Source: Thermoplasmata archaeon
GTDB lineage: Archaea; Thermoplasmatota; Thermoplasmata; RBG-16-68-12
Length of the DNA stretch: 64,000 nucleotides
Assembly (NCBI GenBank): GCA_035636595.1
Contig: DASPYU010000016.1
Coordinates: 193,518-257,517, forward strand
Direction: 5' to 3'
The notes under the pieces are model-generated. The model saw only the letters and a list, made by a program, of their open reading frames with translations. It made no database searches and was not told the origin of the DNA. Made by a program: the position numbers and the translations under genes. Every line of letters starts with the position of its first letter. Position 1 is the first letter of the stretch. Shown here piece by piece: positions 8,754 through 64,000 of this stretch.

Positions 8754-9416
8754 ATGAGGAAACTTGTTGTCGGCGCCTTTCTGACGCTCGACGGGGTCAT
8801 GCAGGCCCCGGGCGGCCCGGATGAGGACCGTGAGGGCGGGTTCGCGCACGGCGGATGGTCGGTGAAGTATTGGGACGACATGATGGGCAAACTCATCGTT
8901 GAGCAGACACTGAGACCCGACGCGCTGTTGCTCGGCCGCAAGACGTACGAGATCTTTGCCTCGCACTGGCCACGGGTGACGGATCCGAAGGATCCCGTGG
9001 CTTCCAAGCTGAACAGCATGCGGAAGTACGTCGCCTCACGAACGCTTCGCAACTTGGATTGGCACAACGCCACCCTGTTGCGCGGCGATGCCGCGACCTC
9101 CGTCGCACGGCTCAAGCAGCAAGCCGGAGGCGAAATTCACGTGACGGGGAGCTCCAACCTGATCCAGACGTTGTTGAAGCACGACCTGGTCGACGAGTTC
9201 CGCTTGTGGGTCTTTCCGGTCATGGTGGGCCCGGGGAAACGGCTTTTCGGAGACGGGACCGTCCCTGGGGCTTTCCGGCTGGCGGACACCGCGACGTCGA
9301 GCACCGGCGTCGCCATCCACCGCTACGAACGGGCCGGAAAACTCGAGGTCGCTGAGTTCGCGGTGGACGAGCGTGGCCGCAGCGCGGCGCTCTGGGAGGA
9401 TAAGGCCGACAAGTAA
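8754..9416 (+). CDS. dihydrofolate reductase-like (RibD C-terminal domain) protein
   Basis: MRKLVVGAFLTLDGVMQAPGGPDED...LLLGRKTYEIFASHWP, YyaP/RibD_C family. ATG 8754 has GGGAGG 8 nt upstream. ORF track begins at GTG 8736. Confidence 0.8.
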   Translation: MRKLVVGAFLTLDGVMQAPGGPDEDREGGFAHGGWSVKYWDDMMGKLIVEQTLRPDALLLGRKTYEIFASHWPRVTDPKDPVASKLNSMRKYVASRTLRNLDWHNATLLRGDAATSVARLKQQAGGEIHVTGSSNLIQTLLKHDLVDEFRLWVFPVMVGPGKRLFGDGTVPGAFRLADTATSSTGVAIHRYERAGKLEVAEFAVDERGRSAALWEDKADK

Positions 9417-9473
9417 ATCCCCAGGCGGGAATCGAGTCCCAACCTGCTAGCCTCCCCTCGACATCGCGCGGCC

Positions 9474-10790
9474 TCAACCACCTGCGTCGATCCGCTGAAC
9501 TCGTCGCGAAAGCGCCCACATAACCGCGAGGCCAGCCGCGGCGATGAGGAGGCTGACCGCCAGAAGGGGACCGATGAACGGGAGGAGGCCCGCTGATACG
9601 ATGAGGGAAATCCACGGGAGCGCCCGGCGAGCCCCGCGCTCCTTCAGGAGCCGAATCCCGGCCACGGAGCCGATGACATACGTGAGGATCGCCGCTCCAC
9701 TCGCCATGAGGAAGGCGGAGACAAAGTCTACGCGGAGGAGGTAGAACGCTCCCAAACTGGCGAGGACCATGACGATCAGGAAATTGAGCGCGTGCCGAGG
9801 AGCGCCGGTCTTCGGGTCGATTCGCGCAAGGGACCGCGGAAAGACCCCGTCCCGGGCCGCGGCGAAATACACCCGCGCCATCCCCGCGGAATACGCATTA
9901 ACGGTGCCGAACGTGACGAAGACGGCGAGGAGGGCAACGACGGCCCCGGCGTAGGCTCCAAAGGCGTCCGACACCATCGCGGCAAAGGGCGTGGCGCCTC
10001 CGCCCACCCGATACGCCGCCGTGCCAACGGTCACGACCGCGACGCCAACGTACAGGACGCTGACCAGGACGACGCTGATGACCACGCTCCGATGGAAGTC
10101 CCGCTTCGGATCCTGAAACTCCTCGGCGACATTGGACGTGTTCTCGTATCCGAGGTACGACCAGACGATGAGGGCCGCGGCCGTTCCGATCGATGCGAGT
10201 CCGTTCGGGAGGAAGGGCGAGTAATTCGCCGGCGAAGTCCGCGGAGCCGACGCGACGACCGCGACCGCGAGGGCTGCGAGGATTGCAACCACGGTGGCGA
10301 TCTGAACACGCCCGCTGAAACGGATTCCAAGGTAGTTGACGACAAACGCGGCGAGCAGGATTCCGGCCGCCACGAGGAAGATGTCCTCGCGCGAGAGCGG
10401 ATAGACGTAGACGAGGTACGACGCGGCCGCCAGGGTCGCCGCGGGTGCCCCGATCGCGGCCCATGCCAGGAAGAGCCATGCGGTTGCGGCGCTCGCGCCT
10501 GCTCCGATTCCCTCTCGCGCGAACGCGTAGATCCCGCCGGACTCCGGCCTCCGGGCCGAGAGCTTCGCGAACGTGTAGGCGAACGGGTAGCTTGCAAGGG
10601 ACAGGAGGATCCACGAGACGATGGAGGCGGGCCCCGCGATTTGCGCGGCGAGCCCGGGGATGACGAAGATCCCGGATCCGAGGAGGGAACTCACATAGAG
10701 GGCGACGGCATGGCGGAGCGTGATGACCCGGTGGAGCGCTGGCTGCGGCGCAGGATGTCCCACGGCGCTCGATGCGTCCCGGTCCCGCGG
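9474..10790 (-). CDS. APC-family amino acid permease (start approximate)
   Basis: Multi-TM protein. The N-terminal region of the track ORF (to 10910) is non-membrane and Arg-rich. The conserved start of this family (ITLRHAVALYVSSLLGSGIF) maps near 10790 with no nearby ATG. Confidence 0.75.
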   Translation of the reverse strand, partial: PRDRDASSAVGHPAPQPALHRVITLRHAVALYVSSLLGSGIFVIPGLAAQIAGPASIVSWILLSLASYPFAYTFAKLSARRPESGGIYAFAREGIGAGASAATAWLFLAWAAIGAPAATLAAASYLVYVYPLSREDIFLVAAGILLAAFVVNYLGIRFSGRVQIATVVAILAALAVAVVASAPRTSPANYSPFLPNGLASIGTAAALIVWSYLGYENTSNVAEEFQDPKRDFHRSVVISVVLVSVLYVGVAVVTVGTAAYRVGGGATPFAAMVSDAFGAYAGAVVALLAVFVTFGTVNAYSAGMARVYFAAARDGVFPRSLARIDPKTGAPRHALNFLIVMVLASLGAFYLLRVDFVSAFLMASGAAILTYVIGSVAGIRLLKERGARRALPWISLIVSAGLLPFIGPLLAVSLLIAAAGLAVMWALSRRVQRIDAGG

Positions 10791-21692: not shown

Positions 21693-22349
21693 TTACATGG
21701 AGGGCCGCTCGACCTGAGGCCGCGAGGGCGCCATCGCCCGCACGCTCTTCAGATACGGAATGCCCGCCCCGACGATCCCGAGGACGACGGAAGCCAGGAG
21801 GAGCCACCATCCCGCGCCCGCTCCCCATGACAGTTGCGTCGGGCCGGTGTTCGTGCTCCCCCAGAAGCCGCTGACCGTAAACGTGCCGAGGTCGGTCGTG
21901 GCGGCTCCGGGGATCGCGACGACCGGATAGAAAATCGCGAGCAGGCCCACGCCGACGACGAGCAGGCTGATCACGAGGAGCCCCAGCGTCGGCATGTTGC
22001 GTCCGATGGAGAAGGAGAACAGCGCGAACACGACGACGGCGAGGAGGATGAAGAGCGCGTCCAGGATGTAGGAGATGCCGAGGACACCGGCGACTGCGTC
22101 GAAACCACTCGAGGCGTACGGCACGATCGTGGTCCGTGTCCACGCGCCGCCCTGGTAGCGGTCCGAGGCCATCGTGGTCCACGAGAACGAGGTGACGTCC
22201 CGGACGTTGCCCGTGGCGTCACCGAGGGACCAGAAGGGCAGCGCGAGGGCGAGGAGAGCGAGGAGGACCGAAAAGCCGAGGGCAAGCCGCGAAGGGCCGA
22301 GACGCCACGCGCGGTCGACCCAGGTCCGCAATTCCGCAATCGGGTGCAT
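21693..22349 (-). CDS. hypothetical integral membrane protein
   Basis: 218 aa with about 5 TM helices and a Trp/Gly-rich tail. Confidence 0.5.
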   Translation of the reverse strand: MHPIAELRTWVDRAWRLGPSRLALGFSVLLALLALALPFWSLGDATGNVRDVTSFSWTTMASDRYQGGAWTRTTIVPYASSGFDAVAGVLGISYILDALFILLAVVVFALFSFSIGRNMPTLGLLVISLLVVGVGLLAIFYPVVAIPGAATTDLGTFTVSGFWGSTNTGPTQLSWGAGAGWWLLLASVVLGIVGAGIPYLKSVRAMAPSRPQVERPSM

Positions 22350-31417: not shown

Positions 31418-33070
31418 TCAGAAATCTTCGCCTTCGCCCCCGCCGTCGCCGCCTTCGCCGCCCTTGCCGGGGCCCTTGCCGCCGCCTTCGCCGGCCCTTG
31501 CCGCGATGACGTCGTCGATGCGGAGCACCATGACCGCCGCGTCCGTCGCCGAGGAGATCGCTTGGCTCCCGACCCGGATCGGCTCGATCACGTTCTCCTT
31601 CCTCATGTCGGAGACCTTGCCGCTGAAGACGTTGATTCCGGCATGCTTGTTGCCCTTCTTGTGCTCCTTCCGGAGCTCGATGAGGATGTCAATCGGGTCC
31701 AAGCCTGCGTTCTCCGCGAGGGTGCGAGGGATGACCTCGACCGCGTCTGCGAAGGCCTCGATGGCGATCTGCTCACGCCCGCCGACGCTCGAGGCGAAGT
31801 CCCGCAGTGTGAGGGCGATCTCTGTCGCGCTCGATCCACCGCCGGTGATGACCTTGCCGTCCTCGATCGCGACGGCCACGACGCTCGTCGCGTCCTCGAG
31901 GGACCGCTCGACCTCGTCCACGACGTGCTCGGTGCCTCCTCGGATCAGGATCGACATCGCCTTCGGATTCTTGCAGCCCGTGACGAAGGTCATCTCGTCC
32001 TCGCCGATCTTCTTCTCGTAGACCATCTTGGCGTAGCCGAGGTCGTCCTTCGAGAGCTCGTCGAGCTTCGTGACGACCTTGCCGCCAGTCGCCTTCGCGA
32101 GCTTCTCCATGTCCGACTTCTTGACTCGCCGTACCGCGTAGACTTCGGCCTTCGCGAGGTAGTGCTGTGCGAGGTCGTCGATGCCCTTCTGGCAGAAGAT
32201 GACCGTGGCACCGCTCTTCTTCACGGTGTCGACCATCCGCTTCAGCATCGACTCCTCTTCGTTCAGGAACGCCTGGAGCTGGGTCGGGTCCGTGATCTCG
32301 ATTTTCGCGTCGATCTCGGTCTTCTTGACCTCCAGGGCCGCGTCGACCAAGGCGATCTTCGCGTCCTTGACCTCGGACGGCATGCCGGGGTGCACGCGCT
32401 CCTTGTCGACGATGACGCCGTCGACGAGGGACGTGTCCGCAATCGAACCGCCCTGCTTCTTCACGACCTGGATGTTGTCGTCGTCCACGAAGTAGGAGTC
32501 GTCCGCGCGCTGCTCTGCGACGGTCGTGACGGCCTTCACAGAGATGTCCGCCAAGAGTTCCTTGTGGCCGCTGGACGACTTCGAGGACATCGCGGTCATC
32601 GCGACCTTCCTCAGGACGTCCGTGTCTTTGATCGAAATCTTCGTCGCAACCTTCTCGAGGACCTCGCGGGCCTTCTCCGCCGCCTGGCGGTACCCGGCGG
32701 CGATAACCGTCGGGTGGATGTTCTGCTCGATCAGATCTTCCGCCCTCTTGAGCAGTTCCCCCGCCAGGATGACGGCCGTCGTCGTGCCGTCGCCCGCTTC
32801 CTCGTCCTGGGTCTTCGCGACCTCGACGAGCATCTTCGCGGCGGGGTGCTCGATGTCGATCTCCTTGAGGATCGTCACGCCATCGTTCGTGATGACGACG
32901 TCCCCGAGGCTGTCGACGAGCATCTTGTCCATTCCCCGCGGGCCGAGCGTCGACCGCACGGCGTCCGCGACCGCTTTCGCGGCGGCGATGTTGTTGAATT
33001 GCGCTCCCTTGCCGCGATCGCGGCGCGTCCCTTCCTTCAAAACGAGTATCTGCGTTCCGGCTGGCATCAT
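31418..33070 (-). CDS. ths: thermosome subunit (group II chaperonin)
   Basis: From ATG 33070: [52 protein letters not shown]...[14 protein letters not shown]-terminal GGM-like tail. The track start 33208 adds 46 junk residues across the promoter. Confidence 0.95.
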
Positions 33071-33120
33071 GTAAATCTCTCCGAATACGGAATTCGGGAC
33101 TCTGCCTATGTTGGGACTTC

Positions 33121-33127
33121 TATATAA
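33121..33127 (-). promoter_or_regulatory. TATA box (TTATATA on minus strand) of the thermosome / heat-shock operon promoter
   Basis: cgcttatatagaag on the minus strand, about 50 nt upstream of the thermosome ATG. AT-rich island within GC-rich DNA. Confidence 0.5.
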
Positions 33128-33492
33128 GCGTAGCGATGGATGGTTTGGTCCCATTGTCGGGGGATGCTTAAGAATACGCCCTGATGCGTCCCGTAGCGGG
33201 TGATGCAAATGGACTCCAAGAATCCGGAAGGGAATCGCCCTGCCGTTCCAGGACGGATGGGGCGACCTGATCCGGTGGGCGACCTACTGGAGCGCCCGAC
33301 GAGGGATGGCGTCCATGTAGGGTGCGTGCTACTGGTGGATTCATGCCTCCCGAGCCGACTGAAAGTGCCGAGGGATGCCTCTGACCATGGAACAGGAGGG
33401 TATGGACGCGCCGGTAACTTGTCCATACTACTTGTCGATGTATTCTCAGTACAGTAAACTGTAGACAAAAAGCCTTAATACGCACGCAGAGC

Positions 33493-33858
33493 TTGCTGAG
33501 AGCATGCGTACCTGAGACTCTGGAACAAACGGAAGAGGCCTTTTGTAGCTCTTGGCATCATCCGTCCAGAAACCCAGGACGAGAACACGTTAATATCGCG
33601 CCGGGCGTCCGGGTCGCCGTGCGGAAGGTGGTTTTCCCCAAGGACTTCAAGAGCAAGGTCCACCCAACCCAGATCAAACAGGCGTGCGAAAAGATACCTC
33701 CACGGAAGAAAACTCAGCACCTGAATCGCGATGTGGTGCTGACCATGGAGATGGGTGGTCCTTTTCTCTTTCTGACGTTCCAATACCATGAACATGAAGA
33801 CGAGGAAGTACTGTACGTAAAGAACGCGAAATGGACGAAATCTAAGGGTAAACGATGA
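33493..33858 (+). CDS. hypothetical small protein (TTG start), candidate toxin partner of the downstream Panacea-domain gene
   Basis: 121-aa ORF in lower-GC DNA. No in-frame ATG near its 5' end. Its stop overlaps the next ATG by 4 nt (ATGA). No recognisable domain. Confidence 0.25.
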   Translation: MLRACVPETLEQTEEAFCSSWHHPSRNPGREHVNIAPGVRVAVRKVVFPKDFKSKVHPTQIKQACEKIPPRKKTQHLNRDVVLTMEMGGPFLFLTFQYHEHEDEEVLYVKNAKWTKSKGKR

Positions 33859-34526
33859 CCGAAAACGGAGAGTGTGAGCACGAGGGGCAGTGGATTCCAA
33901 CCACCGCGGAGTTCGAGACCGTCCGCTGGAATGGCGAACCCCTCCTTTTGCACGACGTTCCAGCCAAGTCATGCCCGCTTTGCAATGAGACCATTGTCGA
34001 CGCGGATGATGTGATCCGGGCAGAGCAGAGATGGATAGCCGGAGAGCTGGGGCTTACTCCTCGGGAGGCAAACATCCTCCTGATGTTGTATGCCCAGGGG
34101 CCTCGATTCACCGAGACCGGTTATGTGGAGGAGAAGTACCGCTTCAACAAGATGCTCTTTTCCGTCTGGAAAGAACTCGAGAAGGAAGGGTTGGGGCAAT
34201 CTTTCCTCCACGACAGCTTCCGGGCGGAGAGCCGAGGGCCCGTTCCCGACAATCTGGAAACGGATTCGAAGTCTCTGGAAAGTAAGGGCCTTACCAAGGT
34301 GCGATGGGGAGGGAAGGCGGCCAAGACGTCATTCCGGTGGGATCTCACCACTGAAGGGTGGAATCGGTCGAAGCAGCTTTACAACTTGACACCTCAGGCG
34401 ATGCGTGACGCTGTGTCGAAAGCAAAGGAAGAACTCTTCCTGCTAGACTCCACCCAGATGATGCACAAGATCCACGAACTCTACCCCGAGTACAAGAAAG
34501 CTTACCGGGAAAAGGACGAAGAATGA
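33855..34526 (+). CDS. YgiT/MqsA-type zinc-ribbon plus Panacea (DUF4065) domain protein, putative type II antitoxin
   Basis: N-terminus GECEHEG...KSCPLCNETIVDADDVIRAEQ parallels the MqsA Zn-binding domain (CxxC/H ... CxxC). Central NILLMLYAQGP...FRAESRGPVPDNL matches the DUF4065/Panacea core (KLxKLLYxAQG ... FxAWxYGPV). Confidence 0.55.
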   Translation: MTENGECEHEGQWIPTTAEFETVRWNGEPLLLHDVPAKSCPLCNETIVDADDVIRAEQRWIAGELGLTPREANILLMLYAQGPRFTETGYVEEKYRFNKMLFSVWKELEKEGLGQSFLHDSFRAESRGPVPDNLETDSKSLESKGLTKVRWGGKAAKTSFRWDLTTEGWNRSKQLYNLTPQAMRDAVSKAKEELFLLDSTQMMHKIHELYPEYKKAYREKDEE

Positions 34527-34672
34527 GGCATCCCCTTCCACCGGAGCCCTCGGCACACATGCCGGGGGTTTCCTTTTTCGCCAGCCTTTTCCCAAGCCCT
34601 GGCCGCTTCGACGGCGAGAGTGGCACCTGAGGGAATTTCGCTGATACCCGAGACTTAAGGCGGCGGATTGTT

Positions 34673-34855
34673 ATGTCCGGGTCATTGGATACCCCACCCG
34701 CAACGCTGATCGGAGCCTTGATCGGGTTCGTCGGCGGACTCATCTATGGAGCCATGACCGGCCAGTGGATCACTGGCCTAATTGGCGGGACCATTATCGG
34801 AGCCATCGTCGGGGCTGTCGTTGACGCGATAGGCAAGCAGGTCGGAGGGGCCTGA
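34673..34855 (+). CDS. glycine-zipper micro-membrane protein (GlsB/YeaQ/YmgE-like)
   Basis: 60 aa. LIGALIGFVGGLIYGAMTGQWITGLIGGTIIGAIVGAVVDAIG with serial GxxxG/A motifs. ATG with AAGGCGG 8 nt upstream. Confidence 0.4.
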   Translation: MSGSLDTPPATLIGALIGFVGGLIYGAMTGQWITGLIGGTIIGAIVGAVVDAIGKQVGGA

Positions 34856-35125
34856 CCCCCCGACGGAAGGCCCTCACACGCCCGTCCGGGGCCAACAACG
34901 TCGCAACGGAACCCCACGTGGGCGTGCGCACAATCGCACACGGGGCGGCACTACGGCAGCCCAGTTTTCTTTCCGGATCGATCCTGACGACACGGGGCCC
35001 TTTATGAACCTCGACCCGAGGAGTTGACGAGACTCTCAGGCACTCTGACGCTCAAGCTCCTAGGCTCGAGAATCTTGTGCCTGGAAGGCCGCATGAGTGA
35101 TGGGCTCGGGACTGTAAGATGGAGG

Positions 35126-35530
35126 CTATTCATCCGGTGGCAACTCGATTTCCCATGTGCAGATCTCGACCAGAGTCTTCCTTATCCGGGTGTAGCTGGG
35201 TCCCGTGACGAGACTATGGGCCGGATTGGCCGTCTCCGGCGCATGCCGGACATTCAACTCACGGTCCCACATCTGGCCCGCGGTCGTCTTGACTACTCCA
35301 GCTCGTATCTCCGGTTTCGTCGAGCGTTCGAGAGTCCTCCGTGGCGTTGAGTATCTACTCCAGTCAAACGAGATGCCTTCGTCTATGTCACGCTCCTTCC
35401 CAAAGGCGCCAGGTTGAAGCTTGTGTTCGGGCCCCTTGGTGAAGTCGTCCGGCACCCATCTGAAGAAACAGTCCGCGGGATTCTTTATTTCCTGAGGCTG
35501 AGGAGGACCCTCTGCTAGCTCGTTAGCCAA
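35126..35530 (-). CDS. hypothetical protein (island ORF C) with HEPN-like Rx5H motif
   Basis: 134-aa ORF starting at TTG 16 nt before ORF B's stop. Same frame as ORF A. Contains RELNVRH and GISFDWSRYSTP. Confidence 0.3.
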   Translation of the reverse strand: MANELAEGPPQPQEIKNPADCFFRWVPDDFTKGPEHKLQPGAFGKERDIDEGISFDWSRYSTPRRTLERSTKPEIRAGVVKTTAGQMWDRELNVRHAPETANPAHSLVTGPSYTRIRKTLVEICTWEIELPPDE

Positions 35531-36069
35531 CTCACAAGACCTCGGTTCGGCTGGGTTGGATCGACGAGAGTACCATCGAATCTACCTCTGTCCTTACCGT
35601 CGCCTGCGAACTCCACTGGAAGTTTGGGGTCGGCCGGAATGTTGACAAGCAGGTTCAGATTTGGAAGATCCCAGAAAATGTCAATGCTCCCTTGCGGCCC
35701 CGGTCCGATCTCAGGCAGGGGCATGGGTTCGACGTTAAGACGTAGGTATTCCTGCCATTGGAGCCTCACGAACGCGATTGCCCTGTCCAGGGTGTCCTTG
35801 GAATAGCGAGGCGACCCCCGCCCGTCGAAGTTGTCCTTGAGGCCTAGGAGCCATTTGGCATCATCGATGATCCCGGCAAGCTTGTCGGACACAGCTGCGA
35901 ACTCGAGCTGCACCCCGTCCCGGTGCCGCTCCACGAGTTGTTCCAGCAGCGGCCGCGGCCTGACCGTATGCTGCGGCGGCCAAAGGTTGCGGGACTGAAA
36001 GTGCTGACGGTCCATGCAGGGCCACATCGGAATAGTCTTGCCATTAGAGTTCGAGAACGTTGATACCAC
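35515..36069 (-). CDS. hypothetical protein (island ORF B); possibly the out-of-frame middle segment of a disrupted larger gene
   Basis: 184-aa ORF that begins at GTG inside ORF A's last 26 nt. First ATG is 14 codons in. Its frame differs from A and C, which share a frame. Confidence 0.3.
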   Translation of the reverse strand: MVSTFSNSNGKTIPMWPCMDRQHFQSRNLWPPQHTVRPRPLLEQLVERHRDGVQLEFAAVSDKLAGIIDDAKWLLGLKDNFDGRGSPRYSKDTLDRAIAFVRLQWQEYLRLNVEPMPLPEIGPGPQGSIDIFWDLPNLNLLVNIPADPKLPVEFAGDGKDRGRFDGTLVDPTQPNRGLVSWLTS

Positions 36070-36724
36070 CTTCTCGCGCTGATGCCGTGAGACTTGCCTC
36101 CTTGTGAGTCGCCCTATCGAGCAACTTCTTCAGTTCCACGATGTCAGTACTGTCGAGAGCCACGAAGAAGTCCTTTGTCGTTTCCTCTCCATTCTCATGG
36201 AAGGTAATTTTCGCTTGATGCACGACGACAGCTGCCAACGGTCCCTTGTCCACATCTCTGCCAAATACTGGTCGTAGATCGGTCAGGATTCTCGCTGTGC
36301 AGAATACGTGATTCTGCTCGGACCGGACCTGGCTGGCTTTCGCGCTTACCCCAAGTGTGTCATCGAGTGAGAGGACTTGCGTAAGGTACGTCTTGAATTC
36401 GTTCCAGTTCACATCCTTCGTCGGCAGTTCGGGGTCTTTGGAGGCCTGAATTGTGTCGCATACATCCGCCGCAAACTTTTCCGTTGGATCCCCAGCGATA
36501 TCCATGGACTCATAGAGTCCAGCCAAAAGCCGGAATAGGCCATCCGCATCCGCTTTGGAAGCACCGGCCTTTTTTACCCACGCAGTAACGAAGCTGCGAC
36601 CGAGGAGGCTAGGCTTTGCTTCCTTCAGCACATCAAAGAGTTCCCTACGCTCCTTCTGAGAGAACCGAAGGAGCTGCGCGAGCACACGCTTCTGTTGTTC
36701 GGGAATTCCGAGACCGTCGGGCAT
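36044..36724 (-). CDS. hypothetical protein (island ORF A)
   Basis: About 226 aa from ATG 36724 (MPDGLGIPEQQKRVLAQLL...). Lower-GC codon usage. No recognisable domain. Its stop is overlapped by ORF B. Confidence 0.4.
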   Translation of the reverse strand: MPDGLGIPEQQKRVLAQLLRFSQKERRELFDVLKEAKPSLLGRSFVTAWVKKAGASKADADGLFRLLAGLYESMDIAGDPTEKFAADVCDTIQASKDPELPTKDVNWNEFKTYLTQVLSLDDTLGVSAKASQVRSEQNHVFCTARILTDLRPVFGRDVDKGPLAAVVVHQAKITFHENGEETTKDFFVALDSTDIVELKKLLDRATHKEASLTASAREGGINVLEL

Positions 36725-37017
36725 CGCGATCACGCCACGGCGGCTCTGATAGATTTGTTGTTCGCACGTACAAGAATGAATCTAGTGGTGACCAGAGAGC
36801 TGTCCCCTTCCCGGACGCAGGCGTCGTCCTTCCCCAGCAAGGACCCTTCCGAATCGACTATTGGATTTAAGGGTTTTGCCAAGGGGCGTCAAACCTTGCC
36901 GCTGGACGACCATGCACCTTAAGTTAACAAAACCCGCGCACCAGGTTTGACATTAGGAATCAGTCCTAAAGCGGCCACACCCGTCGCAATCCTTTGGTTT
37001 TGGAGTGGCAGATGGGC

Positions 37018-37464
37018 TCAGCTACCTGGAACGTACCATGACTGAACGTTCGTGAAACCCCACCGGACGAGCACGCTCTGCGCGACAGCGTAGCAACTTT
37101 CCGGCACGAGCAGCATGACCTTCGCTCCAGAGCTAACGTAGTCTCGTAACTGGCCGCGCGTGTGATCGTTGTCCAAATCCGCGCACGTCTTCACTTCGCC
37201 CATGACCCAAGCATTCCCCGGACCCAGCGCGGTGAGATCGGGAATCGATCCGCCGGCAGTTTGTCGTGGTTTGTTTGGAATCTCGGGCAAGGCGGCTGAG
37301 ATTTGAGTATATCCCCTTCCGCGTAGGGTTTCGACCCATCCGCGAAGCATACGGTCGTGTTGTTCCTGATCCGTCGAAAAAACCATGAGAAATCCGGCCT
37401 CGACTATCTCAGAGGGTCTGAGGCACATACTTAACTCTTTTCGGCGTTCGTTCCGATTGTTCAT
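37018..37464 (-). CDS. Hjc-type Holliday-junction-resolvase-like PD-(D/E)xK nuclease
   Basis: HDRMLRGWVETLRGRGY...IPDLTALGPGNAWVMGEVKTC...RGQLRDYVSSGAKVMLLVPE aligns with the Hjc pattern (ERELxKxLxxxGF...DLVA...IEVK...GRLIEF...VLAVKF). ATG 37464. Track start is TTG 37476. GC about 56%, versus about 67% for flanking genes. Confidence 0.45.
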   Translation of the reverse strand: MNNRNERRKELSMCLRPSEIVEAGFLMVFSTDQEQHDRMLRGWVETLRGRGYTQISAALPEIPNKPRQTAGGSIPDLTALGPGNAWVMGEVKTCADLDNDHTRGQLRDYVSSGAKVMLLVPESCYAVAQSVLVRWGFTNVQSWYVPGS

Positions 37465-37593
37465 CCGGATAACCAATCACCCAGTCAGTCCCCCGCGAGG
37501 GGACAGCTGGTCCATCCCCCGTTGATGAGACAACCTGATGGATTACCGCGCATGTGGAAAATCGGCGCCGTCCTCTCGCACGCGGTACCATAA

Positions 37594-37601
37594 TTCTATA
37601 T
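37594..37601 (+). promoter_or_regulatory. TATA box upstream of the IMPase-NADK operon
   Basis: ttctatat 24 nt upstream of GTG 37625. Leaderless-type spacing. Confidence 0.4.
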
Positions 37602-37624
37602 CAGGTAAGGCGGTAAGTTGGCCC

Positions 37625-38392
37625 GTGAAGGGACTTCTCCTCGAGCTCGCGGATGCCGTCCAGCACGCCGTCGACTCGTTCGCCGGGAATCCCGCCGAGG
37701 TGATCGGCCGCGGCGCGGATGGCGCACCGAGCACCCGCATCGACCGAATCGCGGAGGAAGCGGTCCTCCGCGTCCTAGATTACGAGGGGGCGGCGCTCAA
37801 CGTACTGAGCGAAGAGGCGGGATACGTCGATCGCGGCGGCGAAGCCACCCTCGTCCTCGATCCCATCGATGGGACCCATAACGCCCTGCGTGGAGTCCCG
37901 GCGTACTCCGTCTCCCTCGCGATCGGCCACGAACATCTGGCCGAAATCCAGGAGGCCCTCGTCCGGGACCTGGTGTCCGGCGCCACCTACTACGCCGCGA
38001 AGGGCGGCGGCGCCCTCCTCAACGGCCATCCAATCCATGTCCATGCGTACGATCCGAAGGACGTGTTGTTCAGCGTCTACCTCGGAACGAACGCGGCCCC
38101 GGACGCAACGCGGGTCGCGGGCCTCGCCCGGCGGGTTCGCGCTCTCGGGGCGGCATCCCTCGACATGTGCCTCGTGGCCCGCGGGGCCGCAGACCTGTAC
38201 TACATGCACAGCGCGACCGTCGACGCGAAATTGCGCGCCGTCGACATCGCCGGCGGGACGCTCATCGTGCGGGAAGCGGGGGGCCAGGTGCTCGACCTCG
38301 ACGGACGGGATCTCGATTTGCCGCTCACGACCGCGGCCCGCACCGACCTGGTCGCGGTCGGCGACCGACGAGCCTGGGAGGTCATCCGATGA
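37625..38392 (+). CDS. inositol monophosphatase / fructose-1,6-bisphosphatase family protein
   Basis: From GTG 37625: VKGLLLELADAVQ...DRIAEEAV...LVLDPIDGTHNA...WDxAAG-like. IMPase motifs DPIDGT and the C-terminal metal site. The track's 37538 start adds 29 unlikely residues. Confidence 0.8.
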   Translation: MKGLLLELADAVQHAVDSFAGNPAEVIGRGADGAPSTRIDRIAEEAVLRVLDYEGAALNVLSEEAGYVDRGGEATLVLDPIDGTHNALRGVPAYSVSLAIGHEHLAEIQEALVRDLVSGATYYAAKGGGALLNGHPIHVHAYDPKDVLFSVYLGTNAAPDATRVAGLARRVRALGAASLDMCLVARGAADLYYMHSATVDAKLRAVDIAGGTLIVREAGGQVLDLDGRDLDLPLTTAARTDLVAVGDRRAWEVIR

Positions 38393-60065: not shown

Positions 60066-63000
60066 TTACTTGCGGCGCGTCCGGCGTCTACGCGAGAGAA
60101 GGAGGACGAGTACTCCCGTCGTGAAAGCGGGGGCCATCAAGTCGCTAAATTCAGGGACACTTACTGTGATCGAGCTGTCCTGAGACGCACCGCTCCCATC
60201 GTATTTGAGATCAATCGATGGACCTGAGACGTATTCGACCCGAAGCCGGATTCTTTGGTTCGCGGTAATCGAGACGGTACCGCTTGAACAACTAAAGAGT
60301 TGGTCATCGCCTCCGGTGGTATTCGTGTTCGTCCAACAGACCAGGCTGGGTGAACTCCCGTTCTGATTGGTGACAGCAAACGTCACGTTCAGGATGGTTC
60401 CGCTTGATGTCGAGAGATCCAGCTGTCCGGCCCAGCTCCCAGCGGCGATCGTCTCATCGGCCGATGCCGGATCCGTGAAGAAACAAGCCGTCGTGTTTCC
60501 ACTCGACAACGTAATGGATGCCCCACCGCCGCCTCGCGTCGTGTTGAGACCCTTGACGAACACACAGTCGCCCGAAACAATCTGGGGGTCCGAATCGCGC
60601 AGGTAAAACGTTGAGTCGCCGAATCCGAACGCTTGCGGTGAACTCACGGCGCGCGGGCCTGGCGCGAACTGGGAAGAAGGCGCCAGCGAAGGGGCTCCAA
60701 TCCCTGTCGTCCAATCCACACTGGAAGACCAATCGGTTGCCTCGAAAACCATTCGAGTCGTGTTCGTAACCGGCCCGACCGCTACTGATCCCTCAATCTC
60801 AAAATCAGTCTTCGCAAGCGCATTGGCTGGGAGGGCAACTTTCGTCCAGGTTCCGGTCCACATGTACAGAGCTCTACTCGTGATTCGTCCGCTCAGCCCA
60901 CGGATCTCGAACATGTGGTCCGCGTAGATCCCAGCGATCGGAACGCCTGTCGGGTCCGACGCATTCAAATCGATGTAGACACGCAGAATATCCTCGCCGG
61001 TCTGCCGCGGCAGCGGGAGAGGACGGCCGGACGCGTTTCCCCCTTGACCGCGTGGCGAGGGAACGATGCGTTCCGGCACCGCGCCCCCGAGCATCTCACC
61101 CGCGACCGCGACGTGGAAGAATGCCGTGGATGGGTCCACCGCTGCGCCGTACCGGACGATGTTCACGTCCGAATTGGTCACCGGAATCGAGTCCGAATCG
61201 GGAACATCTCGACCGACCCAATCGCTGAAGAGTCCGTCAATCCGGACGGCAGACGGTGGCGAGACGACGTAAGCACGAATCGGGCCGCCGCCGTGAACGA
61301 ACACCGGTTTCGTGCCGCTCGCGCCGAGGACATCGACTTGGATGGCATCGCCGGGCAAAAATCCCGGGGCCGAGACGGACGCCGTGATGGTGGCGTTCGG
61401 CTGGCCCTGGGTCAAGGTTACGGATTCCGCCGAGAGGGAGACAACCACGCCGGGCGTGGCGTTAAGCTGAATCGAGGACACATCCCATGTGAATGAGGAT
61501 GGCGTCCCGAGCGCCCGCGCGCGAATCGTGAAGAGAGGGGTGGGGCCAGCGCCTACGGTCGATGTCAACGGCGAGACGAGGAGGAGGACCGCTCCGCCAT
61601 CCGGGGACAATTGCGCGAGACTACGACTCGAATCGCCGCGGAAGTCATCCGCATAGACGAGAATGCGGAACGCCGTAGGATCGAACCCGTTGAAATCGTA
61701 CGTAGACACTCGGGCCTCGACGCCCGTCGCCGAGGCCGCGGACTGAACAGACCCGCCCGGTTGACGCTGGCTCCAGTTCACCTCGGCATTGGCGGGGAAC
61801 GTGTACAGCCGGGCGCCTGCGACGGTAAAGTTCGCGCCAAACACACTGACGACCGCGTCCGCCCCGATTCCCTCGAACGACAGACCGGTGGACGCGTTCC
61901 CGTCCGCGTCGATCAGGAAATACACTCCATCGTATCCCGTGCTATCCCCGAAGGTACCGCCCAGGGTCGTCGCGTAAAGATAGAGCGAATTCTGATCGAG
62001 CAGGGATGCGTATTGGCCGATTGAGACGAACGGATTCGAGGCCTGGGTCGCGGCATTGAGCTTCGGCACCGCGTCCCAATCGCTGAACGAGCCGTCGATC
62101 GCGATCGGCGCCGTGGGTCCGGAGACCGGGATGAAGAGCAATGCGAAGATCACGATGGCGACGAGCGACCCGGACGCGATCGCCGCATAGCGCACGCGCC
62201 GGGAGGGCCCCACCAACCGGACCGCGCTTCTCCCCGACCGGACGAACTGAGTGCCATTCACGATCCCGTTGATGCGACCTTGCGCGCCGACGAGACCGTT
62301 CACGCGCCCTTGGGCAGTCACGAGACCGTTCACCCGACCGGCGGGTTGGACGAGTCCGTTGACGCGACCCGTGCCGTTCACGAGTCCGTTCACGCGGCCC
62401 ATGCCGTTGACGAGACCGTTCACCTTGCCGGCGGTTCCTCGGCCTTCCCGCTTCGGGCGCATCCCGCTGACGAGGCCGCGGCTGCCGCGCATCCAACCGG
62501 AGAGGAATCCGACGGACGTGGCAAGGGGAGAGGGCGGCGTGGCCACGGCCTTCTCGCCTTCGGGCTTCTTCGCCTCCGGCACGATCTTCTCGTCCGGTCG
62601 CATCGACTCTTCGAGCTCTTCGATCAGCCAGTCGAGCACAGCCGCCTTCGTGCGCTCGAGTTCCTCGGTCGATAGGGACTCCTCGAGCTCGCCGACGAGA
62701 AGGTCGTCCACGAGATTGTCGAGTTCCGGGGCCTGTGTACTCGGGCGGACCTCGCGTGGCGCGGGCGCCCCCTCTGGCGCAGGGACCGAGGCGCCGCACG
62801 ACGGGCAGCGCTCCGCGCCCTCCGGGAGAGGCCGGCCGCACTCGGTGCATGCGGGGCCGGCTCGGGTGATCAGGTCGTCGAGCTCGGCGATCTCCTGATC
62901 CCAGGCCACGTCGTCGAGGAGCGAGCTCGCAGTCGTGCGGAGTTTCTCGGACCACTCCGGCTTGCGCGCATGCTTCGCATGGATTCGCAGGAGCGCGACC

Positions 63001-63863
63001 TTGAACTTCCGCTGGTCCGGCGCTTTTGATGCGGCGCGTTCGAGACTTTCAACGGCCTGGTCCGTCCGTCCGAAGGAGTCCAGTAGAAGGCCGCGCGCAT
63101 AGAGGAGGTCGGCGTCATCGGGCTTCTGAGCCAACCGGTTATCGTAGAAGGCGACCAGCCCCGCAATGCCCTCGTCGAGGAAGGCCCGCCGGATCGCCTC
63201 GTCCATCTCCTCCTCGTCGAAGGAGGCGCCGCACTCGGGACATGAGGGCGCGTATGCGGACGTGAGACACCCGCAGAGGGGACACTCGTACTCGTCCTGC
63301 GCGACACTCTCCTTCGTCCGTTGCGGAGGGGCGTAGTTCAGCAAGCTGAACGACGCGAAGATCTTCCGCGCCGCGAGCGGGCCGACCTCCGGGATCCTCG
63401 CGAGGTCCGATTCCTTCACCCGGGCGAGCTTCCAGAGCGCGTTGTAGCCGCGATCGACCAGTGCTTGGGCGCGGGACGGATCCAAACCGAATGCTCGCAG
63501 TGTCGCGAGCATCGCCGCGGTGTCGACCTCGCCTCGGAGCTTTCGCTTCCGCCGGCCTTCGAGGACCGGGGCCGCCGCCACGGCCGGAGGCAGGGGTTGA
63601 TGGGTCGCGGGCTCGGCGGGCGATTCTTCGGACTCCCGTGGTGCGGTAGGTGGCGATCCGGGAGCCGGAAACCTCGAGTGACACTGATCGCAGATGACCT
63701 GCCACGGACTGAACGTCCCGCACTCCGGGCACGCGACGGCCCAGTCGAGCTGGCGCGCGTTGTGGAGGATCGACGCGGCGCCGCACGACTCGCAGAGGAC
63801 GATTGGGAAGAGCTTTCCGCCGCAAGAGCTGCACGAGGGAAAGTCCTCGACCTGGGGACTCAC
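60066..63863 (-). CDS. large single-pass membrane protein: cytoplasmic multi-zinc-ribbon/HhH region, GRVNGLV decapeptide repeats, TM helix, N-glycosylation-rich ectodomain, C-terminal PEF-type TM anchor
   Basis: 1265 aa. Four CxxC...CxxC pairs at residues 11–65, 194–211 and 339–356. HhH-like ATLRAFGLDPSRAQALVDRGY...IPEVGPLAARKI. 6 x GRVNGLVxxx. TM AAIASGSLVAIVIFALLFIPVSG. About 680-aa ectodomain with more than 20 NxS/T sequons. C-terminus VPEFSDLMAPAFTTGVLVLLLSRRRRTRRK. Confidence 0.7.
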   Translation of the reverse strand: MSPQVEDFPSCSSCGGKLFPIVLCESCGAASILHNARQLDWAVACPECGTFSPWQVICDQCHSRFPAPGSPPTAPRESEESPAEPATHQPLPPAVAAAPVLEGRRKRKLRGEVDTAAMLATLRAFGLDPSRAQALVDRGYNALWKLARVKESDLARIPEVGPLAARKIFASFSLLNYAPPQRTKESVAQDEYECPLCGCLTSAYAPSCPECGASFDEEEMDEAIRRAFLDEGIAGLVAFYDNRLAQKPDDADLLYARGLLLDSFGRTDQAVESLERAASKAPDQRKFKVALLRIHAKHARKPEWSEKLRTTASSLLDDVAWDQEIAELDDLITRAGPACTECGRPLPEGAERCPSCGASVPAPEGAPAPREVRPSTQAPELDNLVDDLLVGELEESLSTEELERTKAAVLDWLIEELEESMRPDEKIVPEAKKPEGEKAVATPPSPLATSVGFLSGWMRGSRGLVSGMRPKREGRGTAGKVNGLVNGMGRVNGLVNGTGRVNGLVQPAGRVNGLVTAQGRVNGLVGAQGRINGIVNGTQFVRSGRSAVRLVGPSRRVRYAAIASGSLVAIVIFALLFIPVSGPTAPIAIDGSFSDWDAVPKLNAATQASNPFVSIGQYASLLDQNSLYLYATTLGGTFGDSTGYDGVYFLIDADGNASTGLSFEGIGADAVVSVFGANFTVAGARLYTFPANAEVNWSQRQPGGSVQSAASATGVEARVSTYDFNGFDPTAFRILVYADDFRGDSSRSLAQLSPDGGAVLLLVSPLTSTVGAGPTPLFTIRARALGTPSSFTWDVSSIQLNATPGVVVSLSAESVTLTQGQPNATITASVSAPGFLPGDAIQVDVLGASGTKPVFVHGGGPIRAYVVSPPSAVRIDGLFSDWVGRDVPDSDSIPVTNSDVNIVRYGAAVDPSTAFFHVAVAGEMLGGAVPERIVPSPRGQGGNASGRPLPLPRQTGEDILRVYIDLNASDPTGVPIAGIYADHMFEIRGLSGRITSRALYMWTGTWTKVALPANALAKTDFEIEGSVAVGPVTNTTRMVFEATDWSSSVDWTTGIGAPSLAPSSQFAPGPRAVSSPQAFGFGDSTFYLRDSDPQIVSGDCVFVKGLNTTRGGGGASITLSSGNTTACFFTDPASADETIAAGSWAGQLDLSTSSGTILNVTFAVTNQNGSSPSLVCWTNTNTTGGDDQLFSCSSGTVSITANQRIRLRVEYVSGPSIDLKYDGSGASQDSSITVSVPEFSDLMAPAFTTGVLVLLLSRRRRTRRK
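62250..62429 (-). repeat. 6 x 30-bp in-frame tandem repeat (GRVNGLVxxx) inside the large membrane protein
   Basis: DNA repeats gacgagaccgttcacgcg... and the antisense reading PFTRP x7 are visible directly. Confidence 0.7.
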
Positions 63864-64000
63864 CCGAGTAGCCTCCTACGGCGGGCCGGCGCGAGGCGGA
63901 AGCGGGGGGAAGAGGGTGGCCTCTCGCTGCAGCGGAATCGTGCGACCATCACGCGTCGCCTGCGCGCTTACCTTTTATAGAGCGTTATGGACTTTCGCCC

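Follow-up and report, generated by a model that had tools for sequence, protein, structure and literature searches.

The DNA analysed here, a stretch of 64,000 nucleotides from a Thermoplasmata archaeon (contig DASPYU010000016.1; hereafter the window), encodes near its end a protein of 1265 residues that presents a question: What could be the role of a chain which starts with zinc ribbons, reaches its first hydrophobic helix only after some 560 residues, and finishes in a short tail resembling the C-terminal sorting signals of archaea? The answer that we favour, with a probability of roughly 45% and hence at a little under even odds, is that the product of this gene (60066-63863, minus strand) is an envelope glycoprotein anchored at both ends, which would couple a binding stalk outside the cell to partners in the cytoplasm. 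To our knowledge, hardly anything has been learned about the cell surface of uncultivated Thermoplasmata, and we know of experimental studies of archaeal C-terminal sorting for PGF-CTERM proteins and ArtA in haloarchaea only.

Membrane Topology of the Protein

An earlier note on this DNA had described a transmembrane protein of 1265 residues with a cytoplasmic N-terminus, a single internal transmembrane (TM) helix, a glycosylatable ectodomain and a C-terminal anchor. Its open reading frame (ORF) is real, given the upstream GGAGG, the homologues with the same N-terminus and the synteny of the locus, and the helix at aa 560-582 is indeed the sole internal hydrophobic one. It is also the first hydrophobic segment of the chain, the N-terminus being a Cys4 zinc ribbon and not a secretion signal. 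Lysine and arginine are distributed around both membrane segments in keeping with the positive-inside rule, with six in the 20 residues preceding the internal helix and one in the 20 following it, and with one before the C-terminal helix and seven in the eight residues after it.

The same arrangement emerges from the potential sites of N-glycosylation. The proposal of more than 20 NxS/T sequons was an overcount, as there are 15, of which 13 lie in the ectodomain and two in the repeats described below. The 13 of the ectodomain are about three times the number expected from its composition (4.6 +/- 1.9; none of 5000 shuffles reaches 13), and in 48 full-length orthologues the sequon density is ten times higher in the ectodomain (1.99 per 100 aa) than in the N-terminal part (0.20), as might be expected if the outer part were N-glycosylated. 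Since Cys4 ribbons, helix-hairpin-helix (HhH) domains, tetratricopeptide repeats (TPR) and the KaiC-like ATPase that is fused to some relatives are all cytoplasmic domain types, the N-terminal part would reside inside the cell. Charge flanks, sequon density and domain types therefore agree in supporting the predicted topology, with the N-terminus in, the beta domains out and the C-terminus in.

The C-Terminal Tail: Sorting Signal or Permanent Anchor?

The VPEF motif, hydrophobic helix and basic ending recognized previously are all found in the C-terminus, which reads VPEFSDLMAPAFTTGVLVLLLSRRRRTRRK: VPEF occupies positions 1236-1239 and is followed by SDLMAPAFTTGVLVLLLS and then, at the very end, by RRRRTRRK. 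Among 27 tails PEF is invariant and the RR pair at least 90% conserved, and the PEF tail is retained across all three forms which the distal domain takes at this locus (see below). To place these tails with respect to curated models, the whole protein and its last 68, 42 and 35 residues were scanned against NCBIfam and Pfam, the cut-off being 23 bits for PEF-CTERM (TIGR03024, IPR017474) and 25 bits for PEFG-CTERM (TIGR04296). The former model is matched weakly by five of the 27 tails, the best being that of a distant homologue with 19.3 bits, and by 46 of 76 tails from a larger family at E<=1 (best E 1e-9); individual scores in this family form a continuum, from 38.4, 25.6 and 23.5 bits, which reach the cut-off, to 22.6, 21.7 and 20.1. 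TIGR04296 is matched weakly in three of the 27 and eight of the 76, with one relative attaining 25.1 bits and scoring higher still against TIGR03024. Because the tails of homologues match TIGR03024 at the same position, the tail of the window protein would be the equivalent of PEF-CTERM domains, a divergent form that has drifted below the model's reach; these relatives support such an assignment only indirectly. The PEF-type sorting signal of the earlier note thus stands in so far as PEF, helix and basic cluster are conserved and homologous tails reach the TIGR03024 cut-off; it falls short in that the window tail itself matches neither this model nor PGF-CTERM.

The main alternative has to be considered at this point, namely that PEF, helix and arginine cluster form a permanent second TM anchor, specific to the family and never cleaved, in which case the protein would be two-pass and PEF a structural motif at the membrane interface. 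Most of the results that weigh against a sorting signal count in favour of this anchor. The window tail reaches no sorting-signal model: for TIGR03024 there is no match at E<=10 with the whole protein or any of its three C-terminal segments, and the closest clade members fail too; PGF-CTERM is not matched, the motif being PEF and not PGF, nor is TIGR04296, the sequence here being PEFS, and other C-terminal sorting models score only below their cut-offs. In the DNA examined by pattern scans, comprising the window and 31 loci (372 kb, highly redundant), the tail is seen on this family alone, no other PEF-tailed ORF having been found, and a search of 5.8 billion proteins with a profile of the tail only returned 763 candidates, none at E<=10, the profile being too short for a database of this size. 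The occurrence of the tail does not, in itself, tell a shared sorting signal from a family-specific anchor. No archaeosortase was recognized among the polytopic membrane proteins of the 64-kb window and of the relatives' flanks (up to 10 kb), which were surveyed without an archaeosortase query: in ten selected window ORFs, most of them predicted to encode membrane proteins, Pfam scans identified permeases, an M48 peptidase, an SPFH protein, an MFS transporter and other proteins, and the polytopic ORFs across the loci are proteases of the presenilin or signal peptide peptidase (SPP) type, TauE, a protein with 13 TM helices and antisense artefacts. Finally, the archaeosortase substrates known to us have the cleavable signal peptide which the window protein lacks.

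What makes us regard a permanent anchor as rather unlikely is, first, that such a layout in three parts at the very end of the chain characterizes sortase-type signals; second, that homologous tails reach the curated PEF-CTERM cut-off, with up to 38.4 bits; and third, that PEF has remained invariant while the adjoining helix drifts freely, as would be expected of a motif for recognition more than of one for packing. Archaeosortase C (ArtC, IPR022504) has been linked to PEF-CTERM, which has been discussed for Methanosarcinales and for anaerobic methanotrophic archaea (ANME), not for Thermoplasmata (PMC5244752; PMC9723798). In Haloferax volcanii, cleavage by archaeosortase A and lipid anchoring have been shown experimentally for PGF-CTERM substrates including the S-layer glycoprotein (PMC7157517). 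If the reading of the tail as a sorting signal is true, a sortase-type tail on a protein that is anchored at its N-terminal side and has a large cytoplasmic domain would represent a doubly anchored substrate of a new kind. The whole soil clade to which the gene belongs escapes the curated PEF-CTERM model, and a tail model specific for this clade would improve annotation.

A Large Family without a Name

How widespread is this architecture? When aa 1-765 were compared by phmmer with 1.84 billion cluster representatives, 1014 matched at E<=1e-3, 405 at E<=1e-10 and 77 at E<=1e-30, most alignments covering the query from about 475 to 760, that is, the NG repeats (see below), the TM helix and the first ectodomain module, D1. 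Domain counts given here and in the following sections refer to the 150 best representatives, the defining features having been tabulated for 147. These features are cytoplasmic (G)R(V/T)NGL(V/T)NG repeats, a TM helix, two homologous beta-sandwiches opening with IDGxFxDW and spaced by about 280-330 aa, and a PE(F/Y/M) tail; the window protein has all four. A tail of the form PE(F/Y/M/L) plus helix and basic cluster ends about 80 of the 150 representatives. D1 is found in 124 and its second copy, D3, in 110, the distal domain D4 of the window protein in three. On the cytoplasmic side, HhH is present in 44, TPR in 62, the N-terminal ribbon domain in 25 and a fused KaiC-like ATPase in 22, with further representatives having NG repeats alone. 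The distal domains of the family comprise DUF2341, LTD, DUF11, FG-GAP and BNR/sortilin-like propellers. The core of the family, as judged from these sequences, is conserved, and it is the tip and the cytoplasmic modules that vary.

Family members with named sources are entered as 'hypothetical protein' from Thermoplasmata, Methanomassiliicoccales or 'Euryarchaeota' metagenome-assembled genomes (MAGs). From its sequences, the family appears to consist of parts of known kinds, and is large and unrecognized in annotation; in the literature consulted we found no description of proteins that combine a cytoplasmic head with NG repeats and a signal anchor and, outside, a duplicated IDGxFxDW stalk with a variable tip and a PEF tail. 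Through the gene analysed here, a PEF-type tail becomes connected with a large family whose entries in public records bear only generic names ('hypothetical', 'TPR repeat', 'HhH domain-containing').

Two loci of the family deserve separate mention. One of them (L034, 1-16613) carries three very large paralogues of 2142, 1848 and >2003 aa, FG-GAP domains being present in the first and the second; two KaiC-like ATPases, of which one is fused and the other separate, and a TPR/zinc-ribbon protein are also encoded there. In the other (L032, 1-3776), a DUF2341/LamG protein of 1638 aa without C-terminal hydrophobic helix or PEF tail lies beside a minimal member of the family, P0129; its C-terminus looks cytoplasmic, and the protein may be inserted in the opposite orientation.

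The Ectodomain and Its Variable Tip

The region outside the membrane, which had been called Thr/Ser/Gly-rich, is rich in serine (11.6%), glycine (10.7%), alanine (10.4%) and threonine (8.8%). Beta-sandwich or Ig-like folds had been named as those to look for in it, and the AlphaFold2 (AF2) model predicts such folds: it is all-beta over about 650 aa, in four domains, with a predicted local distance difference test (pLDDT) of 78.8. D1 has the invariant positions D, W, D, D, G, G and E, and is matched in part by the N-terminal region of the Firmicu-CTERM family (E 1.4e-6). D1 and D3 are homologous (BLASTP E 3e-6), both opening with IDGxFSDW and both containing a D-x-D-x(4,5)-T-G loop. The sequence of the domain between them, D2, is conserved in the close clade only (14/150). 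The best Foldseek matches of D4 are jelly-roll domains, in particular the C-terminal domain of the cocaine esterase CocE (prob 1.0, E about 1e-5); other matches of the ectodomain are a surface glycan-binding protein of Bacteroides and multidomain glycoside hydrolases and lyases. In orthologous loci the distal region takes three forms, with D4 present, with D4 absent, or with a different domain ending in TWGxxxIPEF. Such swapping of distal domains at a single locus fits a surface-exposed protein.

Calcium or glycan is the probable ligand of D1 and D3. Within the D1 alignment there are weak matches to Glucodextran_C (PF09985; E 8e-5, 1 of 26 members) and CBM9_1 (PF06452; E 0.013, 2 of 26). It counts against a binding stalk, however, that no Pfam or PDB relative assigns a function to either domain, and the D1 alignment, used as a profile against the PDB, retrieved matches at chance level only.

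Could the protein instead be the surface (S-) layer itself, or an anchor forming part of its lattice? This reading is favoured by the large all-beta ectodomain, which is glycosylatable and followed by a C-terminal anchor, and by the position of the gene at the same syntenic site in every retrieved clade genome; one relative has a weak match to the C-terminus of SbsC (E 0.21). Yet no S-layer family was matched in the Pfam and NCBIfam scans, a cytoplasmic domain of 560 aa is foreign to known S-layer proteins, and the several paralogues per locus that some relatives possess fit adhesins or receptors better than a lattice protein, so that we consider this solution very improbable.

The Cytoplasmic Part

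Returning to the doubly anchored adaptor, its cytoplasmic part was modelled by AF2 with an alignment of the homologues. The four CxxC...CxxC ribbons proposed for it are found at aa 11-27, 45-61, 194-211 and 339-356, and all 16 cysteines, including the eight of the N-terminal domain, are invariant in 35 homologues, from which these Cys4 sites are predicted to be zinc ribbons. The N-terminal domain has a weak PDB profile match to an HVO_2753-like zinc-finger protein (E 0.033), and the fourth ribbon scores just below the cut-offs of DZR (PF12773; 24.1 vs 27.3 bits) and Zn_Ribbon_1 (PF13240; 23.7 vs 25 bits).

The HhH-like and TPR-like segments are likewise supported, as both are modelled with pLDDT of about 90-95, even if the Pfam scores of the query itself remain below cut-off. 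For HHH_5 (PF14520; cut-off 27) the query reaches 17.5 bits, whereas its orthologues P0028 and P0039 reach 35.3 and 29.6 and P0094 reaches 50.2. A PDB profile search with this region weakly matched the N-terminal domain of RadA (E 0.2). Judging from the (HhH)2 fold, the cytoplasmic end could conceivably bind nucleic acid. The best Pfam model for the TPR region is TPR_9 (E 1.6e-5, 25.2 bits vs a cut-off of 35), all TPR models scoring below cut-off with the query; its PDB profile match is the TPR protein PA4667 (E 4e-6), and Foldseek retrieves for the cytoplasmic part TPR proteins only (prob 1.0), among them MamA, the zinc-binding membrane protein LapB and designed TPRs. Distant relatives pass the cut-offs of HHH_5, TPR_1 and DUF11.

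In sister clades, at the syntenic site of the window, a stand-alone TPR gene (about 235 aa) abuts the start of the large gene (L026, about 9310-9950; L036, 2328-3056; L037, 7306-8004) and, in L037, overlaps it by 4 nt; the window's clade is without this gene. Beyond the fourth ribbon, an acidic helical hairpin is limited to the close clade (8/150), and aa 425-560, which contain the decapeptide repeats, are disordered in the AF2 model.

The Juxtamembrane NG Repeats

The six decapeptides of the form G[RK][VI]NG[LI]V that had been reported are present at aa 479-538 with a period of exactly 10 aa. At the DNA level the claimed 30-bp tandem repeat keeps its period of 30 and is not exact: Tandem Repeats Finder gives 5.3 copies, with matches at 73% and indels at 8%, and the units are set apart by numerous synonymous changes. 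The tract had also been regarded as a hotspot of length variation. Motif counts do vary between homologues, from 0 to 11 with a relaxed motif and from 2 to 11 where the tract exists, with a mode of 6; the DNA copies, however, are old and diverged, and in a second strain, which over the shared region is about 99.5% identical, the encoded protein is unchanged. In the light of these sequences, the variation appears to reflect length evolution between species and not a slippage-prone contingency tract.

In most of the 150 representatives the NG (Asn-Gly) motif stands just ahead of the TM helix, and in minimal members of the family NG repeats are the entire cytoplasmic part, the N-terminus running for instance as GRTNGLTNGLGRTNGLTNGL before a basic stretch and the helix. 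Since the motif is conserved far beyond the clade and constitutes all that these minimal members have inside the cell, its conservation argues for a specific function of the NG repeats rather than that of a mere spacer. A beta-helix of the pentapeptide-repeat type was considered and rejected, because the unit G-R-V-N-G / L-V-N-G-x misfits the A(D/N)LXX consensus with its central L or F; there is no match to the pentapeptide models of Pfam, and AF2 confidence for the repeats is low (pLDDT 30-40). Literature searches with the repeat strings (VNGLVNG, TNGLTNG and others) retrieved unrelated text only.

Read antisense, the DNA of NG repeats in L034 (minus strand, ORF start 14,405 nt into the reverse complement) and in the window (62251-62898, plus strand) gives long ORFs rich in Pro, Leu and Thr, such as PLTSPLTLPALVPLIKPLILP, which mimic repeat proteins and one of which passed a TM filter. 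These are artefacts, as are the other ORFs that overlap the gene of the window on both strands, which owe their existence to high GC content; it is the minus-strand frame of the gene that homologues conserve.

Association with KaiC-Like ATPases

What might the cytoplasmic part interact with? Relatives of the LTD/DUF11 type have genes for a KaiC-like ATPase and for a helix-turn-helix (HTH) protein of 233-235 aa directly upstream and in the same direction (L006, 8369-9899; L035, 8316-9891; L038, 3851-5431). The pair is conserved, and between L006 and L035 the ATPase, with 67% identity, has diverged less than the large protein, with about 40%. These three cases count as one arrangement because PolD DP2 lies upstream in all of them, and they therefore represent, as far as these sequences tell, just one orthologous locus, from a clade with 29% identity; this detracts from the adaptor with KaiC-type partners, as does the absence of any KaiC-like ATPase or HTH partner from the 64-kb window, the neighbourhood of the gene containing nothing that points to a partner.

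The association nevertheless invites the idea of an outside-in receptor, in which the tip and the D1-D3 stalk would sense a ligand, the TM helix and NG repeats would relay the signal to the TPR, HhH and zinc domains, and these in turn would control a KaiC-like ATPase and an HTH regulator or bind DNA. The family has a modular logic like that of receptors: the outer tip varies, the core close to the membrane is conserved, and the modules inside the cell are interchangeable, among them the KaiC-like ATPase fused in 22 of the 150 representatives or encoded next to an HTH gene in the three loci just mentioned. A passage of PMC6393860 cites the proposal that KaiC-like ATPases are archaeal signalling hubs (Makarova, Galperin, Koonin 2017). 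On the other hand, the window has neither gene, the protein is devoid of any recognizable output enzyme or sequence-specific DNA-binding domain, minimal members have NG repeats alone inside the cell, and anchoring at two ends is unusual for receptors. We deem such a receptor improbable.

A Proposed Role for the Window Protein

The adaptor anchored at both ends, to which we return, could work as follows. A cytoplasmic N-terminus of 560 residues, without cleavable signal peptide, would be followed by a helix acting as a type-II signal anchor, which would place D1, D2, D3 and the variable tip D4 outside. The chain would then re-enter the membrane through its divergent PEF-CTERM tail with PEF, helix and arginine cluster; by analogy with PGF-CTERM proteins and ArtA of Haloferax, an enzyme of archaeosortase C type would most likely cleave this tail and put a lipid in its place. 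The ectodomain would thereby be fixed at both ends. On the inner side, NG repeats, TPR, (HhH)2 and the four zinc ribbons may form a multivalent docking platform. The whole would then be a transmembrane adaptor in which a surface stalk binding glycan or matrix is coupled to protein or nucleic-acid partners in the cytoplasm, for which KaiC-like ATPases and the HTH protein are the candidates in related lineages.

If this applied to the family at large, the core shared by its members, from the NG repeats and TM helix through the D1-D2-D3 stalk to the PEF tail, would define an undescribed class of modular adaptors or receptors that span the membrane and are widespread among archaea related to Thermoplasmata. 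The strongly conserved though disordered NG repeat would be a new multivalent docking motif in the cytoplasm, the ectodomain an arch held by a helix and by a sortase-made lipid anchor, and the interchangeable heads (none, HhH/Zn-ribbon/TPR, or KaiC-like ATPase) would connect what happens at the cell surface with KaiC-type signalling or with the nucleoid. This generalization is a doubtful one, offered as speculation from sequence comparison, even if the conserved NG repeat and the KaiC fusions of relatives do suggest a possible link between the surface and cytoplasmic signalling.

Gene Start, Conservation and Locus

Orthologues share the N-terminal sequence MxxxVE(D/N)(F/L)PxCxxCGGK. A public gene call from the Joint Genome Institute (JGI), P0001, has 1148 aa and begins at Met118, leaving off 117 N-terminal residues (window 63513-63863), namely the double zinc ribbon and the linker, which are conserved in all orthologues. 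Because GGAGG stands 8 nt upstream of the GTG and orthologues have a common N-terminus, the long GTG start is right and P0001 truncated. The frame has a GC content at third codon positions (GC3) of 0.76, the overall GC content of the window being about 65%.

A search of 5.8 billion proteins yielded 92 close homologues with 44-71% identity, most of them full length, and two distant ones with 29% identity; those with named sources come from Thermoplasmata or 'Methanobacteriota' MAGs. The window DNA is identical to a JGI soil-metagenome contig (L001), and when a single genome of each species was scanned, the gene was present in 25 loci, which belong to about 20 MAG species from soil and to one labelled Methanomassiliicoccales. 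It is flanked on one side by a divergent DUF1611 gene and on the other by a co-directional gene for a YchF-type GTPase followed by a family-B DNA polymerase, a placement kept in every one of the 25 loci with enough flank. Identity to the window versions is 58-89% for the neighbouring genes and 38-72% for the large gene, which hence appears to evolve faster than its neighbours, as would fit a surface-exposed protein; surface proteins often show fast evolution. An alignment of 35 sequences has as invariant or nearly invariant positions the 16 ribbon cysteines, many residues of HhH and TPR, the repeat motif, many residues of D1 and D3, and P-E-F and R-R of the tail.

Two apparent candidates were discarded. 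The MAG SMAG_U2818 seemed to have two paralogues (L027 and L028); since both have their own YchF gene downstream (81% and 83% identical to that of the window) they are not paralogues, and most simply represent one locus from two strains in one bin that differ in distal domains. A presenilin/SPP-type intramembrane protease is encoded about 5 kb upstream of the gene (L001, 3344-4297, outside the window) and is syntenic in 14 of 31 loci; as a partner it was rejected, genes for eIF2-beta, CTP synthase, peroxiredoxin and the coenzyme A pathway intervening, and the association is probably plain synteny.

Table 1. Positions of the Gene and of Its Predicted Features in the Window
Feature	Window positions	Strand	Residues	Description and basis
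Whole gene	60066..63863	minus		1265 codons + stop, GTG start; ORF list, homologues, synteny
Shine-Dalgarno-like GGAGG	63872..63876	minus		8 nt upstream of GTG; read directly in sequence
N-terminal double zinc-ribbon domain	63666..63863	minus	1-66	Cys 11, 14, 24, 27 and 45, 48, 58, 61; AF2 pLDDT 83-94
Pro/Ala/Glu-rich disordered linker	63528..63665	minus	67-112	pLDDT <50 for aa 75-112; poorly conserved columns
(HhH)2 domain	63330..63527	minus	113-178	canonical hairpin IPEVGPLAARKI; five-helix bundle, AF2 pLDDT about 90-95
Third zinc ribbon	63219..63296	minus	190-215	Cys 194, 197, (199), 208, 211; invariant Cys; AF2 pLDDT about 65-70
TPR domain	62859..63212	minus	218-335	AF2 pLDDT 87-96
Fourth zinc ribbon	62784..62858	minus	336-360	Cys 339, 342, 353, 356; invariant Cys
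Acidic helical hairpin	62601..62729	minus	379-421	LVGELEESL...TKAAVLDWLIEELEE; AF2 helices 379-396 and 399-421; near-invariant columns
Six decapeptide repeats (juxtamembrane NG repeat)	62250..62429	minus	479-538	G(R/K)(V/I)NG(L/I)Vxxx; AF2 pLDDT 30-40
TM helix 1, type-II signal anchor	62118..62186	minus	560-582	hydropathy peak 2.65
D1 beta-sandwich	61578..62111	minus	585-762	begins IAIDGSFSDW, FLIDADGNASTG loop; AF2 pLDDT about 85-94
D2 Ig-like beta-sandwich	61254..61577	minus	763-870	AF2 strands, pLDDT 76-93
D3, second copy of D1 fold	60729..61253	minus	871-1045	VRIDGLFSDW ... YIDLNASDPTG; disordered insert; AF2
D4 distal jelly-roll, variable tip	60159..60611	minus	1085-1235	AF2 pLDDT about 87-95
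C-terminal tripartite tail	60069..60158	minus	1236-1265	PEF 1237-1239, hydrophobic helix, RRRRTRRK

Elsewhere in the Window

Away from this gene, an island of low GC content (33200-37500; 0.57-0.59 vs about 0.65) with ORFs of low GC3 lies between a thermosome gene (31418-33208, minus) and a gene at 37538-38392. One of its ORFs (36044-36733, minus, 229 aa) matches PDB 9q6a, a 'COMMD-like protein MBK5214510' (E 2.8e-12), and for another (33855-34526) no PDB relative was found. The island may be a foreign or mobile insert with a prokaryotic COMMD-like gene. The ORF at 21693-22349 (minus) encodes 218 aa with four or five predicted TM helices, has high GC3 and gives no Pfam match.

Comparison with Known Systems

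In comparative terms, the window protein resembles PEF-CTERM proteins in ending a large extracellular region with a PEF motif, a hydrophobic helix and a basic cluster, and differs from them by its cytoplasmic N-terminus of 560 aa and by the signal anchor that replaces the signal peptide. With the S-layer glycoprotein and other PGF-CTERM substrates of H. volcanii it would share the nature of a surface protein, N-glycosylation (in its case predicted from sequons) and a tripartite C-terminal signal; in contrast to them it has PEF, an additional N-terminal membrane anchor and a cytoplasmic domain, and it belongs to another group of organisms. The beta-sandwich fold and the IDGxFxDW opening of D1 and D3 recall CBM9 and the C-terminal module of glucodextranase, whereas the matches to these modules are all weak and come from relatives, none from the window's own D1. 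The likeness to archaeal KaiC-like signalling modules lies in relatives with a fused KaiC-like ATPase or with KaiC and HTH genes upstream, while the window protein and its 64-kb surroundings are without a KaiC-like gene.

A more distant parallel is provided by LapB/YciM, in which TPR and a rubredoxin-type zinc site are combined: Both proteins would present membrane-tethered TPR together with Cys4 zinc sites, and LapB is among the Foldseek matches, yet no sequence homology is detectable beyond generic TPR, and LapB has no ectodomain. RodZ is another bitopic scaffold, with a cytoplasmic module of DNA-binding type. The logic that the window protein may have in common with bitopic scaffolds such as LapB/YciM and RodZ is that of linking cytoplasmic partners to the envelope.

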